From a virus, in UHGV virus genome UHGV-1607510: DNA of 19,146 nucleotides. The stretch is one strand, 5' to 3'. The translations under genes and the position numbers were made by a program. Positions 8,535-18,647 of the stretch are shown piece by piece (the stretch's first letter is position 1; every line of letters starts with the position of its first letter). The notes under the pieces were generated by a model that saw only the letters and a list, made by a program, of their open reading frames with translations, ran no database searches and had not been told where the DNA came from.

Positions 8535-9251
8535 ATGGAAAATAAAAAATCACTGACGACAGAACAGCTGGAAGACGCTAAGCGGCTTAAGGCTTTGTAT
8601 GAGTCAAAAAAGAAAGAATTGGGAATAACCCAATACTCAATCGCTGATGAACTGGGTATCACCCAAGGAGCGGTAGGGCATTATCTTAATGGCAGAAATG
8701 CGCTAAACGTTGAGGTTGCATCTGGTTTTGCACGATTGTTGCAAGTCTCAATTGCTGATTTTAGCCAGTCAATTGCTGCCAAGGTTGCAGAACAGGCAGA
8801 AAGCCTTAAGAGCGATGCCAACGTAAGGTATGCAGGGGAATACAGAGCAGGAAAGAGGTATCCGGTGTTAAGCAGTATCCAGGCTGGCTCGTGGTGTGAA
8901 GCATGCGAACCATACACCATTAAAGACATAGATGTTTGGCTTGAGTCTGACGCGCATATTCAAGGTAATGCGTTCTGGCTTAAAGTGGAAGGTGATTCAA
9001 TGACGGCACCGGTTGGGTTAAGCATTCCAGAGGGAACATTCGTTCTTTTCGATACCGGAAGGGAGGCAATCAACGGCAGCTTGGTCATAGCAAAACTTTC
9101 TGACTCTAACGAAGCAACATTCAAGAAGCTGATAATCGACGGCGGAAATAAATACCTCAAGGGACTTAATCCTGCATGGCCTCTCGTGCCAATCAATGGA
9201 AACTGCAAGATTATAGGCGTTGCAATTGAGACAAAACTCAGACTGGTTTGA
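8535..9251 (+). CDS. cI: CI prophage repressor (HTH plus S24 LexA-like autopeptidase domain)
   Basis: 238-aa ORF with HTH (ITQYSIADELGITQGAVGHYLNG), Ala-Gly cleavage site (SIQAGSW), catalytic Ser (VEGDSMTAPVG) and Lys (ATFKKLI). Collinear with lambda CI (TQEQLEDARRLKAIYEKKK...). Confidence 0.9.
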   Translation: MENKKSLTTEQLEDAKRLKALYESKKKELGITQYSIADELGITQGAVGHYLNGRNALNVEVASGFARLLQVSIADFSQSIAAKVAEQAESLKSDANVRYAGEYRAGKRYPVLSSIQAGSWCEACEPYTIKDIDVWLESDAHIQGNAFWLKVEGDSMTAPVGLSIPEGTFVLFDTGREAINGSLVIAKLSDSNEATFKKLIIDGGNKYLKGLNPAWPLVPINGNCKIIGVAIETKLRLV

Positions 9252-9268
9252 TCACGCAAGGGGCGAAT

Positions 9269-9637
9269 ATGGTTGGAACCGCTATAGCAAGCTTTTTAGG
9301 GATGTTGGCAATATCGACAATTTACTGCTTAGCGCATGCTTTTATTGCGAAATCTCTATCAGAAAAAATAAGCCAGGCTTGGGCGCATAGATCAGCTCGT
9401 TTCATGATTCTGGTGATCATAGCAATACAAGGGATATCTGCATTTATCCTCTATGGATCAAGCTTATACCTATTGTATCAAGGCGCGACATTTACGCCTT
9501 ACACCAGTGATTACGGAACCCTATACGATGGTAGTGAAGACATCTCTATGGCTTGGATCGTCTTTGGTTTATCTATGGCCGTGTCTGTTGTAGCAGACAT
9601 CATTAAGGTAATTCTCGTCTTAACCTTCGCTGACTAA
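9269..9637 (+). CDS. Small integral membrane protein (122 aa, 3 predicted TM helices) downstream of cI
   Basis: ATG 9269 with AAGGGG RBS (5-nt spacer), 17 nt after the cI stop. Hydrophobic segments VGTAIASFLGMLAISTIYCLAHAFIA, FMILVIIAIQGISAFILYGSSLYLLY and AWIVFGLSMAVSVVADIIKVILVLTF. The track start (TTG at 9248) overlaps the cI stop and is less likely. Confidence 0.6.
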   Translation: MVGTAIASFLGMLAISTIYCLAHAFIAKSLSEKISQAWAHRSARFMILVIIAIQGISAFILYGSSLYLLYQGATFTPYTSDYGTLYDGSEDISMAWIVFGLSMAVSVVADIIKVILVLTFAD

Positions 9638-9769
9638 CCCATAATCCCGGAAGCAATAGCTATCGGGATCCACTTCACATATCCCGCATAAAAAGCACTG
9701 AACAAGCAGACACCGAAAAAAATAAATATCCTTTGTATTCATTTGTTTATCATTATTTCATCAAAAATA

Positions 9770-9811
9770 AATACCTTGGGTATTTACACAATAAAATACC
9801 TACAGTATTCT
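9770..9811 (+). promoter_or_regulatory. PL promoter with operators OL2 and OL1
   Basis: -35 TTTACA (9783-9788), 17-bp spacer, -10 TATTCT (9806-9811). OL2 AATACCTTGGGTATT at 9770-9784 and OL1 AATACCTACAGTATT at 9795-9809, spaced 25 bp as at OR. A degenerate third site AATATCCTTTGTATT lies at 9725-9739. Confidence 0.6.
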
Positions 9812-9857
9812 TTAGCCATCAGCAGGACGCTGGTAGCCAAACGGAACAGATTGGCAG

Positions 9858-9897
9858 GCTCTTTAACATTGATGGGATTGTCCCGCCGAAATGCGGG
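9858..9897 (+). promoter_or_regulatory. nutL site (boxA GCTCTTTAACA plus boxB CCCGCCGAAATGCGGG)
   Basis: boxA at 9858-9868 matches the rrn/lambdoid boxA consensus. boxB at 9882-9897 is identical to the nutR boxB. Located between PL and the N-like gene. Confidence 0.7.
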
Positions 9898-10005
9898 AAC
9901 CAAAGAGTAGTTGGCTTTGGGGTGACGTGAAGTGCAGATGCACGACGGCAACCGGAAGATAAGCACCCGGCGCGTCACCGCCAAAGTCAATCATCGGAGG
10001 TCAAC

Positions 10006-10278
10006 ATGACAGTAGTCATTACATATCTGGCTGACGATAACGCCAGAAATCGCCGCAGAGCACGCAGACAGGCTCAACGTGAACAGGCAATGCAAGAACA
10101 GCGACTGGCGCGAAAGATTGCGCTAAAGCTCTCTGGTTGCGTCAGAGCAGATAAAGCAGCATCACTCGGAAGCCTTCGCTGCAAGAAGGCAGATGAATGC
10201 AGTGGAAGTATTTGCCTGCCAAACGTAGCCATTTACGCGGCAGGCTACCGGAAATCAAAACAACTGACAGCCAGGTAA
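10006..10278 (+). CDS. N-like transcription antiterminator (P22 gene 24 type)
   Basis: 90-aa ORF with GGAGG RBS and an N-terminal arginine-rich motif (NARNRRRARRQAQREQ). First gene after PL-nutL. The C-terminus VAIYAAGYRKSKQLTAR resembles P22 gp24 as recalled. Confidence 0.75.
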   Translation: MTVVITYLADDNARNRRRARRQAQREQAMQEQRLARKIALKLSGCVRADKAASLGSLRCKKADECSGSICLPNVAIYAAGYRKSKQLTAR

Positions 10279-10281
10279 GTG

Positions 10282-10506
10282 ATGAATCAGACATACATTC
10301 CATCATGCTTGAGAAATCTGCCAAAGCAGAAAGCAAAGCCCCGCAAGCAAGCCATAAAGGACGCTAAGGCAGAGGTTATTGATCAAGCAATACAATTGCT
10401 CAGGGAGGAGTTAAGAAGTGGCAAGCTCGAAGGAATGATGATGCCCTATCAGCGCGGATATCTATCGGCGATTAGTAAGTTGGAAGTATTGAAGAGTGAA
10501 TTATGA
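10282..10506 (+). CDS. Hypothetical small helical, Lys-rich protein (74 aa)
   Basis: ATG 10282 directly after the N stop. Product MNQTYIPSCLRNLPKQKAKPRKQAIKDAKAEVIDQAIQLLREELRSGKLEGMMMPYQRGYLSAISKLEVLKSEL. Stop overlaps the next start (ATGA). Confidence 0.5.
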   Translation: MNQTYIPSCLRNLPKQKAKPRKQAIKDAKAEVIDQAIQLLREELRSGKLEGMMMPYQRGYLSAISKLEVLKSEL

Positions 10507-11039
10507 ACTATCTGGAATTTCCGGATGGTTCATTGTTTTGGCAGCAAACCACTTATTTGAGGCGAGATATGAGAAAATCATGGAACGTACCTTTTCCTGA
10601 ATCAGAAACTGAACATGATGGAATGCCTGTTTTCTGGAGATTCCAGGCGACAGTTGAAGAAGATGGAATCAAAATATTCGCACTTCAATATATAGCTTTT
10701 CATCAGACAGAGCATTATGCATGGTTGGTTCCTGCGCATTGGATTGTTGATTTTAAACCAGCACCAAATCAGTGGTTACGGGAATGGAAACAAAGGATAA
10801 ATAGATATGCAATTAAGAAAGTAGCAAAAAATGCAGAAAGATCTTTTGCATTCCCAACGAAGAAACTTGCCATTGAGAGCTTATTGCGCCGGAAGAAATA
10901 CCATTTAATAAGAATCAAACAAGATTTGGCTGTTGTATCAACTCTTGTTGATGGGATGAAGAATATTGATACATCAACACCAGATATTGAATATAATTTT
11001 GGACACAACCAAGAAACAGAAAATTGGGTATTCTACTAG
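10503..11039 (+). CDS. Hypothetical protein (178 aa), AT-rich gene
   Basis: ORF MNYLEFPDGSLFWQQTTYLRRDMRKSWNVPFPESETEHDGMPVFWRFQATVEEDGIKIFALQYIAFHQTEHYAWLVPAHW... The 3' half is visibly more AT-rich than the neighbouring phage genes. Followed by an intrinsic terminator. Confidence 0.6.
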   Translation: MNYLEFPDGSLFWQQTTYLRRDMRKSWNVPFPESETEHDGMPVFWRFQATVEEDGIKIFALQYIAFHQTEHYAWLVPAHWIVDFKPAPNQWLREWKQRINRYAIKKVAKNAERSFAFPTKKLAIESLLRRKKYHLIRIKQDLAVVSTLVDGMKNIDTSTPDIEYNFGHNQETENWVFY

Positions 11040-11064
11040 GCCGCATAGTCGGCCTTTATTTTTG
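11038..11064 (+). terminator. Intrinsic terminator after the 178-aa ORF
   Basis: AGGCCG-CATAGT-CGGCCT followed by TTATTTTTGG. Confidence 0.5.
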
Positions 11065-11085
11065 GCATAAACAACAGAGGCTAAC

Positions 11086-11382
11086 ATGGAATTTAAAGGT
11101 ACTGAAGGTAAGTGGGAAATAATGATGGACGGCGATGAGATTAAAATCATCCAGGCAGACTCTCTTGAAAATGGCACAGGCTGGCGTTCGTATATTGCAA
11201 TCTGTGAGGAAGTTCAATGCATTGAAGATGCCAATCTAATAGCGGCAGCGCCTGACCTTCTCGAAGCACTTCAGTTATTACTTAAGCAAACCAAAAATAG
11301 AACAACGACAACATATCCAGAATGGTATGGAGCTGTTAATAAAGGTCTCGCAGCAATCAGAAAAGCTCTTGGGGATAAGTAA
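11086..11382 (+). CDS. Hypothetical protein (98 aa) with an IAAAPDLLEAL motif
   Basis: ATG with AGAGG RBS. Product MEFKGTEGKWEIMMDGDEIKIIQADSLENGTGWRSYIAICEEVQCIEDANLIAAAPDLLEALQLLLKQTK... The motif resembles AEFIAAFNPKVALALLDE in the ORF at 17642-18109. Confidence 0.55.
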   Translation: MEFKGTEGKWEIMMDGDEIKIIQADSLENGTGWRSYIAICEEVQCIEDANLIAAAPDLLEALQLLLKQTKNRTTTTYPEWYGAVNKGLAAIRKALGDK

Positions 11383-11570
11383 TGAAAGTAAAAATAACTG
11401 CTTCTAATACCAGTTTTGTTAGTGTTGGTGATATTACAGACGTAATAACAAACCATGATGGAACACAAGTTATGTGGTCTGATTTTTGTAAAAGATATGA
11501 GCGAGTCACTTGGTGTAAACTCGTATGGGGCGTCGAATACGAAGAATTACCTGAAATGCATGGCGAATAA
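11382..11570 (+). CDS. Hypothetical small protein (62 aa)
   Basis: Start overlaps the previous stop (TAATG). Product MKVKITASNTSFVSVGDITDVITNHDGTQVMWSDFCKRYERVTWCKLVWGVEYEELPEMHGE. Confidence 0.45.
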   Translation: MKVKITASNTSFVSVGDITDVITNHDGTQVMWSDFCKRYERVTWCKLVWGVEYEELPEMHGE

Positions 11571-11665
11571 GCACTGTGTATTCATTCCAACGAGTGAATA
11601 CACGGAGCAATGTCGCTCGTAACTAAACAGGAGCCGACTTGTTCTGATTATTGGAAATCTTCTTT

Positions 11666-11693
11666 GCCCTCCAATGTGAGGGCAGTTTTTTTT
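11666..11693 (+). terminator. Intrinsic terminator immediately upstream of the coiled-coil gene
   Basis: GCCCTC-CAATGT-GAGGGC followed by AGTTTTTTTT. It ends 13 nt before the GGAGG RBS of the next gene. Confidence 0.6.
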
Positions 11694-11705
11694 GACGGAG
11701 GATAT

Positions 11706-12674
11706 ATGAGTGAAGTAACAGATTTAGTTGTTATTGAAAAAGCAAATGCAATGACTGTATTTCAGTCTGCCGACCAGATTGAAGAAATTCTCCAAAAGGT
11801 TGAACGTGAAGTTATGTCCTTTGTGCCTGATATCACAACGGCAAAGGGCAGAAAGGAGATCGCTTCTCTGGCGTATAAAGTTGCGCAGACGAAAACATAT
11901 CTCGATGGTCTTGGCAAAGACCTTGTTGCTGAACTGAAGGAAATTCCAAAGCTAATTGATGCCAACCGCAAGACAGTGCGTGATCGCCTTGATGAGCTGA
12001 AAGCCAAGGCACGCCAGCCTCTTACTGATTATGAGGAAGAACAGGCGCGGATTAAAGCCGAAGAAGAAGCTAAGGCAGCAGCTGAAGCTCTCGCAAAGCA
12101 AATTGAGTCTGACCATGAAATAGCGATTTTGATGGATCGAGAATTTGACCGCCAAAGAGAAGAGACAAGACTCAAAGCGGAGCAGGAAAAGCGAGAGCAT
12201 GAAGAACGCTTAAAAAGAGAAGCTGAAGAGAAAGCCAGAGCTGAAGCCGAAGCAAAGGCAAAAGCCGAAATTGAAGCAGCAGCAAGGCGAGAAGCAGAAG
12301 CTAAGGCAGCAGCGGAACGTGCAGAGCGTGAACGCATTGAAGCCGAGCAACGAGCACAGCGCGAAGCAAAAGAGGCAGCAGAACGAGCTGAAAGAGAAAA
12401 GCAGGCGGCAATTGAAGCAGAACGCAGAAAAGCACAGGAGGAGGCTGAACGAATCCGTCGCGAGGCTGAAGCAAAAGAGCAAGCCAGAATAGCAGAAGAA
12501 AAAAGAATCAAGGACGAAGAAGAGCGTAGAGCAAAGGATAAAGCTCACCGGAAAGAAGTAAATAACAAAATACTTGCTGACCTTATCAAGGTTGGCGCAT
12601 CAGAAGATGTTGCTAAAAATATCATAACAGCCATCGTAAAAGGCGAAGTATTCGCAACAAAAATAACCTACTAA
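11706..12674 (+). CDS. Coiled-coil protein with a long Glu/Ala/Lys/Arg-rich low-complexity repeat region (322 aa)
   Basis: ATG 11706 with GGAGG RBS. The track start at 11610 reads through the upstream terminator and is rejected. N-terminal globular part (MSEVTDLVVIEKANAMTVFQSADQIEEILQKVEREV...), then about 150 aa of EAEAKAKAE/AERAERE-type repeats, then a C-terminal tail. Confidence 0.65.
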   Translation: MSEVTDLVVIEKANAMTVFQSADQIEEILQKVEREVMSFVPDITTAKGRKEIASLAYKVAQTKTYLDGLGKDLVAELKEIPKLIDANRKTVRDRLDELKAKARQPLTDYEEEQARIKAEEEAKAAAEALAKQIESDHEIAILMDREFDRQREETRLKAEQEKREHEERLKREAEEKARAEAEAKAKAEIEAAARREAEAKAAAERAERERIEAEQRAQREAKEAAERAEREKQAAIEAERRKAQEEAERIRREAEAKEQARIAEEKRIKDEEERRAKDKAHRKEVNNKILADLIKVGASEDVAKNIITAIVKGEVFATKITY

Positions 12675-12698: not shown

Positions 12699-12830
12699 AT
12701 GATTTACGCAATCGCGGGAGGCGCTCGCATGGGTGCCTTCCAACTAAATGAATCTTTACTTGAACGAATCACCCGTAAATTACGTGACGGATGGAAAAGA
12801 GTTGAGGTCTTATTATGCGCAATGAAATAG
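12699..12830 (+). CDS. cIII: CIII (FtsH-inhibitor) homologue
   Basis: Not in the track (43 aa). ATG 12699 with AAGGA RBS. Product MIYAIAGGARMGAFQLNESLLERITRKLRDGWKRVEVLLCAMK. The central region matches lambda CIII (ESLLERITRKLRDGWKRL) by recall. Confidence 0.7.
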   Translation: MIYAIAGGARMGAFQLNESLLERITRKLRDGWKRVEVLLCAMK

Positions 12831-12966
12831 CCATCAATCACCAGATGCTTCGTGCAGCACAGAACAAAGCAGTAATAGCCAGATTTATTGGTGATTCAAA
12901 AATGTGGATTGAAGCAAATAAAGCGATGAAATCAGCTATCAACCTTCCGTGGTATCGCAGGAAATG
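12814..12966 (+). CDS. Kil-like small protein (putative host division inhibitor)
   Basis: 50-aa ORF overlapping the cIII 3' end by 17 nt, with GAGG RBS. Product MRNEIAINHQMLRAAQNKAVIARFIGDSKMWIEANKAMKSAINLPWYRRK. The Kil assignment rests on position after cIII and a loosely remembered IATFIGDEKM-type motif. Confidence 0.45.
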
Positions 12967-13134
12967 AGTTTTACAGATAACTGGTCAGACGAAGAATTCA
13001 TTCGTCAGATGAAAGAATTAATCGGTAACGAAGGAGATATTCATGTCACTTGCAACCACAGTGAAGGAGAGCAAGTTACAGAGACGCATGTACACGCAGC
13101 AGGCGTTAATGTATCGCCAGAAGGGAGATCGTGA
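12963..13134 (+). CDS. Hypothetical small acidic protein (56 aa); Arf-like by position only
   Basis: ATG 12963 overlapping the previous stop (ATGA). Product MSFTDNWSDEEFIRQMKELIGNEGDIHVTCNHSEGEQVTETHVHAAGVNVSPEGRS. The track ORF starts upstream at 12949. Confidence 0.35.
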
Positions 13135-13221: not shown

Positions 13222-13929
13222 ATGGATTTGAATAAATTCGATGAGCCATTCAGCCCTGAAGATATCGAATGGCGAATACAGCAAAGCGGTAAAACACGCG
13301 ATGGAAAGGTGTGGGCTATGGTGCTGGCTTATGTCACGAACAGGGCAATCATGAAACGCCTGGACGATGTTTGCGGCAAAGCAGGATGGCGCAATGAATA
13401 CCGCGATATTCCCAACAACGGAGGCGTTGAATGCGGCATATCAATCAGGATTGATTCCGAATGGGTAACCAAATGGGATGCTGCTGAAAACACGCAGGTA
13501 GAAGCCGTAAAAGGTGGTCGTTCCGGTGCAATGAAGCGCGCTGCCGTTCAGTGGGGAATCGGTCGGTATCTGTATAACATTGAGGAAGGTTTCGCACAAA
13601 CATCTCTCGATAAAAAGCAGGGATGGCACAGGGCAAAACTCAAGGATGGAACAGGATTTTACTGGCTCCCTCCATCGCTGCCGGGATGGGCAATCCCAGC
13701 ATCAGATAACAAACCATCACCAGAAAATACCAACCAGAAATCTCCATCGGTTGACTGCGAGCAAATCCTGAAAGACTTCAGCGATTATGCGTCAACAGAA
13801 ACTGACAAGAAAAAACTCATCGAGCGTTATCAGCGTGACTGGCAATTAATGGCTGGCAACGAGGAGGCGCAGGCTAAATGCGTTCAGGTAATGAACATCA
13901 GAGTTAACGAACTAAAACAGGCGGCATAA
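13222..13929 (+). CDS. Single-strand annealing protein (Rad52/Erf-type recombinase)
   Basis: 235-aa ORF with GAGGTG RBS. The core VEAVKGGRSGAMKRAAVQWGIGRYLYN resembles the conserved Rad52/Sak/Erf annealing-domain signature. Immediately followed by SSB. C-terminal tail ...TETDKKKLIERYQRDWQLMAGNEEAQAKCVQVMNIRVNELKQAA. Confidence 0.7.
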   Translation: MDLNKFDEPFSPEDIEWRIQQSGKTRDGKVWAMVLAYVTNRAIMKRLDDVCGKAGWRNEYRDIPNNGGVECGISIRIDSEWVTKWDAAENTQVEAVKGGRSGAMKRAAVQWGIGRYLYNIEEGFAQTSLDKKQGWHRAKLKDGTGFYWLPPSLPGWAIPASDNKPSPENTNQKSPSVDCEQILKDFSDYASTETDKKKLIERYQRDWQLMAGNEEAQAKCVQVMNIRVNELKQAA

Positions 13930-15465: not shown

Positions 15466-15762
15466 ATGCCAGCGCCTCTGTATGGTGCGGATGACCCGCG
15501 CCGCTGTTCCGGCAATTCCGTATCGGAGGTGCTGGATAAATTCAGAAAAAACTACGATCGGATAATGTCGCTACCGCAGGAAACGAAAGAGGAAAAGGAA
15601 TTTCGCCACTGTATATGGCTTGCAGAGAAAGAAGAACGCGAGCGAATTTACCAGACATCAATCCGACCATTCCGCAAAGCCACATATACCCACTTCCCTG
15701 AATATATCGACCCGCGCCTGCGTAATTACCGCTCACGCTATGGCGCTATCAGTAATGACTGA
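15466..15762 (+). CDS. Hypothetical protein (98 aa)
   Basis: ATG with AGGAGA RBS. Product MPAPLYGADDPRRCSGNSVSEVLDKFRKNYDRIMSLPQETKEEKEFRHCIWLAEKEERERIYQ... Confidence 0.5.
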   Translation: MPAPLYGADDPRRCSGNSVSEVLDKFRKNYDRIMSLPQETKEEKEFRHCIWLAEKEERERIYQTSIRPFRKATYTHFPEYIDPRLRNYRSRYGAISND

Positions 15763-17641: not shown

Positions 17642-18109
17642 ATGAGCGAGATTAACCATCAGGCACTGCGTGAGGCGGTGGAAAATGCAACGTGGGGAGA
17701 CTGGGACTCATATAAACCACACCGTGGCGCACGTGGTTATGAGGTCCGACTAAGTAGCCAAGCCATTGCGCAACACGTTCTGAAAAACAACGCTGAATTT
17801 ATTGCTGCCTTTAATCCAAAGGTTGCTTTGGCACTACTGGATGAACGGGAAAGGAACCAGCAATACATCAAACGCCGCGACCAGGAGAACGAGGATATTG
17901 CGCTTACGGTTGGGAAACTGCGTGTTGATCTGGAAGCCGCAGAGAAGCGGATCGCTGAACTGGAAGCACGGGAAATATCGCTCCCAGAACGTAGCAGTAT
18001 GTTTCATCGAACAGATTTTCACGAGGATTACCAAACGGTAATGGCATACAAAGTTTCTGAAGTCATCGATGCAATCCGCGCCGCTGGCATTCGCATCAAA
18101 GGAGAGTGA
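17642..18109 (+). CDS. Hypothetical protein, possibly Ead/Ea22-like family
   Basis: 155-aa ORF MSEINHQALREAVENATWGDWDSYKPHRGARGYEVRLSSQAIAQHVLKNNAEFIAAFNPKVALALLDERERNQQ... The FIAA.NP...ALLDE motif is recalled from Ea22-like prophage proteins. Confidence 0.5.
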   Translation: MSEINHQALREAVENATWGDWDSYKPHRGARGYEVRLSSQAIAQHVLKNNAEFIAAFNPKVALALLDERERNQQYIKRRDQENEDIALTVGKLRVDLEAAEKRIAELEAREISLPERSSMFHRTDFHEDYQTVMAYKVSEVIDAIRAAGIRIKGE

Positions 18110-18110
18110 G

Positions 18111-18647
18111 ATGAACGCTATCACCAAAGAACAGTTAATCGAAGACCTGAAAGCATCGACGCAGAATTCCAGCGGTATGTTTGAAATCGGCGAGGACACC
18201 ATCTGTAACTTGATGTCTATGCTCACCGCCCATCCAGCGCCGGTAGCGCCGGATGAAATGACGCCGCAGCAGGCGAGTCGGTCATATGGTGGAGAGGTTC
18301 GCGGTTATCGTGATGGCTGGAACGCCTGCCGCGTCGCCATGCTTCAGGGTAAATCCGAACAACCACAAAACGCACAACAAAATATTCCGGAAAATATTCC
18401 CGGTGGCAACTCTCCGGGAATTCCGGATGGTTGGATAAGCTGTAGTGAGCGAATGCCGAACGATAAACAGTATGTTTGGTGTTGGGGTAAATCTTACGGC
18501 TGGACGGAGTACGATACCTTCGAAGGGTATTACGATTGGTCGAGAAACAAATGGTGGGCGGTTACTGACGATGGGGAAGAACCGGCATCGAAAGTAACCC
18601 ACTGGATGCCGCTACCAGAACCGCCGCAGGAGGTTAACCGTGGCTAA
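18111..18647 (+). CDS. Hypothetical protein with DUF551-like C-terminal domain
   Basis: ATG 18111 with GGAGAG RBS; the track ORF (18069) starts inside the previous gene. The C-terminus WISCSERMPNDKQYVWCWGKSYGWTEYDTFEGYYDWSRNKWWAVTDDGEEPASKVTHWMPLPEPP matches the DUF551 signature as recalled. Confidence 0.55.
   Translation: MNAITKEQLIEDLKASTQNSSGMFEIGEDTICNLMSMLTAHPAPVAPDEMTPQQASRSYGGEVRGYRDGWNACRVAMLQGKSEQPQNAQQNIPENIPGGNSPGIPDGWISCSERMPNDKQYVWCWGKSYGWTEYDTFEGYYDWSRNKWWAVTDDGEEPASKVTHWMPLPEPPQEVNRG

Follow-up and report, generated by a model that had tools for sequence, protein, structure and literature searches.

The two genes downstream of N

We analyzed a stretch of 19,146 nucleotides from the UHGV virus genome UHGV-1607510 (hereafter the window), which corresponds to a P22/HK620-like lambdoid early region with its leftward (PL) operon encoded on the + strand, and concentrated on the two + strand open reading frames (ORFs) that lie directly after the gene for the antiterminator N, one of 74 amino acids (aa; 10282-10506) and one of 178 aa (10503-11039). 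An original prediction, made from the letters alone, had described these as an AT-rich, translationally coupled pair of horizontally acquired accessory genes reminiscent of toxin-antitoxin or anti-defence pairs. The basic layout that it gave is borne out, in that both frames directly follow N, which is itself supported by a domain match (Table 1), and the second is followed by a terminator-like hairpin, GGCCGCATAGTCGGCC, with a T-run. The two frames also share the tetranucleotide ATGA at 10503-10506. Based on the evidence below, we propose, with considerable confidence, that the locus instead comprises two unrelated accessory cassettes of the PL operon that are exchanged independently of each other, and that the 178-aa frame arises from a single C at position 10563. 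We refer to the genes as orf74 and orf156, after the lengths of their likely products.

The second gene appears to start at an internal ATG

The 178-aa frame matches the family PHROG 1636 over its residues 23-178, and the match covers the family profile completely (positions 1-156 of 156; E=1e-107). All full-length homologues are 156-165 aa long and begin at the equivalent of M23, the 22-aa extension being found in none of them across a database of 5.8 billion clusters, while among 15 billion proteins the exact 178-aa sequence is absent and the exact 156-aa product is called, on a contig of 19146 bp, as long as the window itself. The internal ATG is likewise the start used in phages 933W (L0079) and HK97 (gp45) and in the RefSeq/PGAP annotations, and it is preceded, by 6 nt, by a GAGG Shine-Dalgarno (SD) sequence at 10559-10562. 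The upstream ATG at 10503 sits within the stem of a 14-bp hairpin and has only a weak SD-like sequence before it.

Comparison with related loci traces the origin of the longer frame to one base. In phages phi367, ECP1 and mEp213, several contigs of the IMG/VR database and an E. coli chromosomal locus (L005), the overlapping ATG opens a frame of only 20 codons, MNYLEFPDGSLFWQQTTYLR*, which terminates at a TGA within GAGGTGA, where the window reads GAGGCGA. Locus L005 has the same orf74-orf156 order as the window, yet the TGA separates the overlapping ATG from orf156. Exceptions are two contigs with a 25-codon variant and one contig (L053) whose linker is of another kind and leaves the frame open into an unrelated gene. 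The C at 10563, which is specific to the window and is T in the relatives, thus turns TGA into CGA and thereby removes the stop, so that the translated linker is fused to orf156, giving both the 178-aa frame and the overlap. Furthermore, an unrelated protein of 105 aa, P0031, bears an identical 22-residue extension, and the extension (MNYLEFPDGSLFWQQTTYLRRD) is therefore linker rather than protein. From these comparisons the conserved second gene is a 156-aa gene starting at ATG 10569, with the 178-aa ORF a one-base artefact, and the 156-aa start should be kept in annotations.

Some observations weigh against this reading. The frame from 10503 to 11039 is truly open in this contig, and ribosomes that terminate at the end of orf74 might start again at the ATG lying across its stop codon, which may give some extended protein; moreover, the CGA form of the linker circulates, because it is also found fused to the unrelated P0031. 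The same observations could favor an adaptive change, whereby the T-to-C substitution yields a 178-aa isoform of the gp45-like protein coupled to translation of orf74, with altered dosage or timing. We regard this as improbable: the strong SD before ATG 10569 is kept while ATG 10503 is buried in the hairpin stem behind a weak one, the extension is a translated linker that is conserved as DNA and not as protein, the bridging ORF is not retained in divergent orf74 loci, and on the contig of the same length as the window the gene caller chose the 156-aa product.

The two genes are distributed independently

We surveyed 5,426 complete E. coli genomes for DNA matches and recovered orf74 in 149 of them. 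The count for orf156 was 598, and only 18 genomes had the two within one match; in no fewer than 174 others, the query was matched solely in its linker or terminator portions. Even among the 18, some have another gene between the two, either ral (in O111 strains, as in phi367) or a gene of the Nmad5 family (in STEC384 and STEC379). In phi367 (locus L001, 3740-3940) ral occupies the slot between orf74 and orf156, and it is also present in O111:H8/H2 prophages. The slot is thus seen to take ral or an Nmad5-family putative nucleotide-modification gene. By its occupants, it would mark a hotspot for anti-restriction and other accessory genes.

Across phages, 933W and HK97 have orf156 straight after a different N and lack orf74; in ECP1 and mEp213 other genes come after N, orf74 and the linker; and in a Citrobacter prophage orf74 is flanked by a 113-aa gene, which follows N, and by a 76-aa gene, with orf156 absent. 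No gene of the size of orf74 is called beside the homologues of orf156 in Pectobacterium (where xis/int is adjacent), Cronobacter or Rosenbergiella, and among divergent homologues generally orf74 is never beside orf156, nor the reverse. Both genes lie on the PL strand between N and the kil and recombination genes, and both show presence/absence polymorphism among related phages with joints at gene boundaries, as is typical of PL-operon accessory genes.

The closest relatives make the same point from either side. The proteins mEp213_046, ECP1_059 and phi367 CDS_0070 are the same 74-aa protein, placed right after an HK620-type N and followed by the same hairpin and linker, and these phages differ from the window in the gene beyond the linker, which is a ral cassette or a 107-aa ORF. 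Conversely, HK97 gp45, 933W L0079 and the corresponding ORF of H-19B lie between N and cIII/kil in the PL operon and have the same SD and ATG and the same downstream linker; they differ in having TGA in the SD region, where the CGA of the window opens the frame, and in having no orf74 upstream.

Alignments with blastn place the joints precisely. N, orf74 and the linker form a single block, 9900-10575, in ECP1, mEp213 and phi367, whereas the orf156 block begins at 10537 (933W) or 10553 (phi367) and ends at 11039. The stretch in which the blocks meet is a portable linker of about 39 bp that supplies the SD of the next gene; close variants precede at least five different genes elsewhere, each starting at the linker ATG. 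A second portable linker, 11038-11080, contains the terminator, and 29-44 bp of it are found again in ECP1, behind ral in phi367 and at two places in mEp213. On this evidence orf74 and orf156 are separately exchangeable cassettes rather than a unit.

These distributions bear directly on the pairing suggested by the original prediction. A genuine translationally coupled two-gene module of the toxin-antitoxin or anti-defence kind, in which the small protein controls the large one, would account for the ATGA overlap, for the layout of small gene, larger gene and terminator, and for both proteins being uncharacterized. We consider it very improbable, and the distribution already largely refutes it: a single match over both genes occurs in only 18 E. 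coli genomes, of 149 with orf74 and 598 with orf156, some of these 18 have other genes in between, a TGA lies between the overlapping ATG and orf156 in the relative with the same order (L005), divergent homologues of each gene occur without the other, and neither protein matches toxin-antitoxin or defence families. The likeness to type II toxin-antitoxin pairs, a small first gene overlapping a larger second one, is confined to this window; unlike in such pairs, co-occurrence is not obligate, the overlap is not conserved, and neither product has the domain of a toxin, an antitoxin or a DNA-binding antitoxin. Of the proposed coupling there remains the overlap itself, which is present in the window sequence and would be the product of the one-base change.

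Base composition

The original prediction had also held the pair to be noticeably more AT-rich than its flanks, and a windowed calculation upholds this for the second gene and not for the first. The window has a GC content of 0.469 (standard deviation 0.033 in 758-bp windows). That of orf74, 0.436, is ordinary, lying within one standard deviation of this mean, while the 178-aa ORF, at 0.369 (0.307 at third codon positions), ranks among the lowest 0.3% of windows of 537 bp. As the downstream flank is no less AT-rich (orf98, 0.414; orf62, 0.360), AT-richness is a property of the whole accessory stretch, not of an island around orf74 and orf156. The broader reading of the genes as accessory cargo holds up well in the light of their mosaic presence and absence, the atypical composition of orf156 and the lack of a known function for either.

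The early-region setting and neighboring cassettes

Beyond the two genes the order is small ORFs, Kil, a Rad52-like recombinase, SSB, an exonuclease, Abc2, Ead/Ea22 and a DUF551 protein, all on the + strand (Table 1).

Table 1. Coordinates of the features of the locus and its surroundings in the window
Feature	Coordinates	Strand	Remarks
cI	8535-9251	+	first in the gene order, followed by a 129-aa membrane ORF
Antiterminator N, HK620 type, 90 aa	10006-10278	+	Pfam PF25694 N_peptide, E=1.1e-15; PHROG 271
orf74, small basic protein, 74 aa	10282-10506	+	start 3 nt past the N stop; PHROG 5305
14-bp hairpin	10503-10533	+	core palindrome 10506-10530, AACTATCTGGAATTTCCGGATGGTT; overlaps the orf74 stop and the ATG of the 178-aa ORF; followed by TTGTTTTGG
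Portable 5' untranslated region linker, about 39 bp	10537-10575	+	GGCAGCAAACCACTTATTTGAGGYGAnATATG; SD GAGG; joint between the orf74 cassette and the next gene
orf156	10569-11039	+	ATG 10569; HK97 gp45 / 933W L0079 / PHROG 1636
Intrinsic-terminator-like hairpin and T-run	11038-11055 (listed to 11065)	+	GGCCGCATAGTCGGCC
Kil	12815-12967	+	
Rad52-like recombinase	13222-13929	+	
Abc2	15466-15762	+	
Second, degenerate palindrome copy	18408-18432	+	AACTCTCCGGGAATTCCGGATGGTT; 3 mismatches; in frame as NSPGIPDGW in the 192-aa ORF 18069-18647

Immediately past orf156, window positions 11086-11570, with orf98 and orf62, are an inserted cassette between the linker at 11038-11080 and another portable linker at 11564-11700, because in 933W, phi367 and L005 the stretch 11564-11692 directly follows orf156. 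The two genes of this cassette, orf98 (11086-11382; PHROG 1273) and orf62 (11382-11570; PHROG 10407), overlap by 1 base in TAATG (11380-11384), are both acidic and AT-rich, and seem to travel jointly. Judged by these sequence features, they are a better candidate for a truly coupled pair than orf74 and orf156. A terminator-like site is present at 11664-11685, and the 354-aa ORF called from 11610 probably starts further 3', at about 11709, past this site.

On the other side of N, a 129-aa hydrophobic ORF (9248-9637; PHROG 6534) overlaps the cI stop and lies on the cI strand, upstream of PL. Because its position corresponds to that of lambda rexAB, we consider it by analogy a candidate for an exclusion or defence gene expressed from the prophage.

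Protein families of orf74 and orf156

The product of orf74 belongs to PHROG 5305 over its full length (profile positions 1-71 of 71; E=4.6e-38). Its 41 homologues, mostly of 74 aa and with identities reaching down to 58%, are confined to Enterobacteriaceae (E. coli, Enterobacter, Citrobacter, Shigella and Leclercia). It is a basic protein (isoelectric point 9.7) with a Lys/Arg-rich N-terminal tail, and AlphaFold2 (AF2) models it confidently as a helical hairpin with helices at residues 21-45 and 55-73 (predicted local distance difference test score, pLDDT, 85).

The product of orf156 is 95-96% identical, along its entire length, to HK97 gp45 (95.5%), 933W L0079 and the H-19B ORF, and its close family is limited to Enterobacterales. 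A profile search of 1.84 billion representatives brought the family to 115 relatives, of roughly 130-160 aa, which take in PHROGs 13631, 25384 and 28215; no annotated domain is found in any of the 115, and these three PHROGs are without assigned function. The genomic contexts of the distant relatives are runs of small phage genes, likewise of no assigned function. The protein has an acidic, Trp-rich N-terminal part predicted to form a beta-sheet, a basic helical center (residues 79-130, net charge +9) flanked by acidic ends, and a conserved C-terminal motif, GHNxETExWxF.

The original prediction had recognized neither protein, and homology and structure searches have fared no better, returning only function-unknown PHROGs. 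Searches of Pfam, PHROGs, NCBIfam and PADLOC with both proteins and their neighbors gave nothing else for these two; orf74 has no match in Pfam, NCBIfam, PADLOC, PDB sequences or Foldseek, and orf156 none in Pfam, NCBIfam, PADLOC, PDB sequences or fold entries. Profile searches of PDB sequences with three alignments (A1, A2 and A3) yielded noise only (E>=0.038), and no homology to Ral was detected for either protein. Literature searches on L0079, HK97 gp45, the accession numbers and the PHROG identifiers turned up nothing relevant, and neither sequence is in the supplements of an accessory-gene screen (PMC12373910).

The lack of a domain match for either protein and the low confidence of the orf156 model might be taken to mean that one or both frames are spurious ORFs in a non-coding spacer. 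This is extremely improbable, given that homologues as distant as about 50-58% identity keep the length and clear conserved motifs and show no disrupted frame, that orf156 has relatives at the profile level, that orf74 folds confidently, and that both belong to established PHROGs.

Expression and possible function

We envisage the locus as two cassettes joined via the portable linker. The first is orf74, which makes up a single block with N in the E. coli versions seen and ends in the hairpin at the junction; the second is orf156, with its own SD and ATG, ending at the terminator-like hairpin beyond it. A consensus scan found a single promoter-like site on the + strand, at 9783-9811, 5' of N, and no sigma-70-like site on that strand in 9812-11039, though weak promoters could escape such a scan. 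Because no promoter-like site was seen between PL and 11039, both proteins would be products of the PL transcript in the early phase that follows infection or induction, and not of the prophage. As orf74 is located upstream of the hairpin and its U-tract, it may be co-expressed with N before antitermination, while orf156 and all genes downstream would need N-mediated read-through.

The cassettes resemble the nonessential region between N and cIII of lambda (ral, sieB, ea10) and the morons, being dispensable, mosaic, AT-rich, bounded by terminators, antiterminated by N and exchanged at their boundaries. They differ from lambda ral and sieB in showing no Ral or SieB homology, and in some phages ral is a separate gene between orf74 and orf156. 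A strict moron has its own promoter and is expressed from the prophage, and the consensus scan detected no own promoter here; the downstream terminator and the atypical composition (orf156 GC 0.369 versus 0.469) do agree with the moron pattern. Because their dispensability, mosaicism and position match the class of ral, sieB, kil and abc2, we tentatively raise the possibility that orf74 and orf156 supply dispensable host-takeover or counter-defence functions, with the basic central helices of orf156 most plausibly serving to bind nucleic acid or a host protein; we hold this as a working idea with somewhat less than even chances.

On the debit side of the account as a whole, protein function is entirely inferred, neither protein has a link to a target, and AF2 models orf156 with low confidence (pLDDT 62.8). 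In addition, the hairpin at 10503-10533 has a short, interrupted U-tract, and Citrobacter-type loci add a separate canonical terminator after the palindrome; the hairpin would be no more than a candidate for a tL1-like terminator.

A widespread palindrome at the junction

The hairpin between the two genes was flagged as terminator-like, its stem having 5 G-C pairs and its tail reading TTGTTTTGG, and a folding energy of -24.3 kcal/mol is computed for the 91 nt around it (10490-10580). Its core palindrome sits immediately behind the stop codon in all the orf74 homologues checked, those of 58-73% protein identity among them. A search of IMG/VR with the right half only recovered at least 120 sites in contigs of 30-67% GC, in which the unsearched left half is 90-98% conserved, defining a 25-bp consensus, AACTATCCGGAAWTTCCGGATAGTT. 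The window copy (10506-10530) has 2 mismatches to this consensus, where 0 matches are expected by chance. Only 9 of the IMG/VR hits follow orf74; the others are non-coding or lie within long ORFs in all three frames (NYPEIPDS, LSGNSGQL, TIRKFRIV), and no protein neighbor of the free copies recurs in over 10 of the 120 loci.

In roughly a dozen IMG/VR contigs of enterobacterial type (L020, L022, L027, L028, L036, L039, L043, L068, L073, L087 and L100 among the loci) the palindrome is directly followed by CACATATTCGGTTATTCCGAACA, a second, small inverted repeat of the form TTCGG-N5-CCGAA. In L020 the palindrome lies between a Q-like and a holin-like gene (named by eye from their translations), in the leader of a late operon, a position that mirrors the place after N and orf74 in the early operon.

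The degenerate second copy in the window lies at the N-terminal edge of the DUF551 domain (residues 121-187 of the 192-aa ORF), and IMG/VR copies in other proteins read ...NSPEIPDGW... and ...NYPEIPEGWKLVP... The placement of the window copy suggests that the element might mark interdomain as well as intergenic module joints.

Beyond phages, the exact consensus 25-mer is found in more than 120 species-representative genomes from nearly every bacterial phylum sampled (an estimated 0.004 or so being expected by chance), ranging over Parcubacteria, Actinomycetota, Chlamydiales, Bacteroidota and Bacillota and including one Methanoculleus metagenome-assembled genome. In 83 of 120 exact copies it lies about 60-130 codons (mostly 65-95) into an ORF of around 350 aa, and both of the representatives scanned carry the Pfam domain PF13310 Virulence_RhuM, one of them fused to a Fic domain. 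These rhuM copies of the consensus read TIR[KN]FRIV. Neither palindrome copy of the window is itself inside rhuM, one being intergenic or in the linker and the other in the DUF551 ORF, in another frame.

We then fetched 80 RhuM loci through peptide patterns elsewhere in the protein, thereby removing ascertainment bias. The eight homologous codons show 38 distinct 25-mers, one of which is a misaligned outlier; 36 of the remaining 37 hold 9-12 Watson-Crick pairs despite changes in both nucleotides and peptide (TIRKFRIV, TTEFFSVV, VIRKFRIT, VISKMETT, TCANFAQV and VCAKIAHT among others). Over the 37 variants 96.8% of the pair cells are paired, and nine of the ten pairs have changed on both sides (116 cells). 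The variants score 0.824 for covariation, shuffles score 0.262 and none of 500 attains the observed value, and slid controls are at most 43% paired. Because only one of the 370 pair cells is G-U, the pattern in rhuM points to a palindrome at the DNA level rather than to an RNA helix, and an RNA hairpin is disfavored there. A coding motif was rejected as an explanation, as the palindrome occurs in all three frames and in non-coding DNA and the rhuM peptide varies while the pairing stays. An operator of the HipB type (TATCC-N8-GGATA) was set aside since the spacing here is N9 and the cognate gene is absent.

In viral contigs the variant TCCGGAA occurs 17 times inside rhuM versus 47 outside, and TTCGGAA 13 versus 14. 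A search of Rfam with positions 9600-11800 (E<=1) gave no match, and we found no description of the palindrome in the literature. What is known of RhuM is limited to its proposal as a toxin domain of restriction-modification islands (PMC3710099) and to the enrichment of its gene beside genes targeted by programmed inversions, such as hsdS (PMC9881135).

Could the junction hairpin be a portable functional cis-element, and not a mere spacer or a usual terminator? It would then perhaps be a RhuM-type operator or target, or a recombination joint, serving in phages as a decoy, a sensor target or a site of module exchange; we consider this less likely than not. Short conserved intergenic sequences bearing hairpins or promoters exist at accessory-gene joints in the PeSL-type cassettes of T4-like phages and in the boundary sequences of lambdoid mosaics. 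The palindrome differs from these in crossing bacterial phyla and in occurring as an identical 25-mer inside the coding sequence of rhuM.

Implications

The result is in the first place a correction: what looks like a tempting toxin-antitoxin-like pair is two unrelated, exchangeable cassettes, ordinary but uncharacterized lambdoid early ORFans. They are nonetheless common early genes, orf156 being present in about 11% of complete E. coli genomes as well as in the Stx phages 933W and H-19B, and hence reasonable candidates for screens for host-takeover or counter-defence functions. The junction hairpin is the unexpected item. With its compensatory maintenance inside rhuM across phyla and its free copies at phage joints, this by-product of the analysis may matter more than the gene pair itself; should it prove functional, genes of restriction-modification islands and phages would be linked by a cis-element of a new kind.

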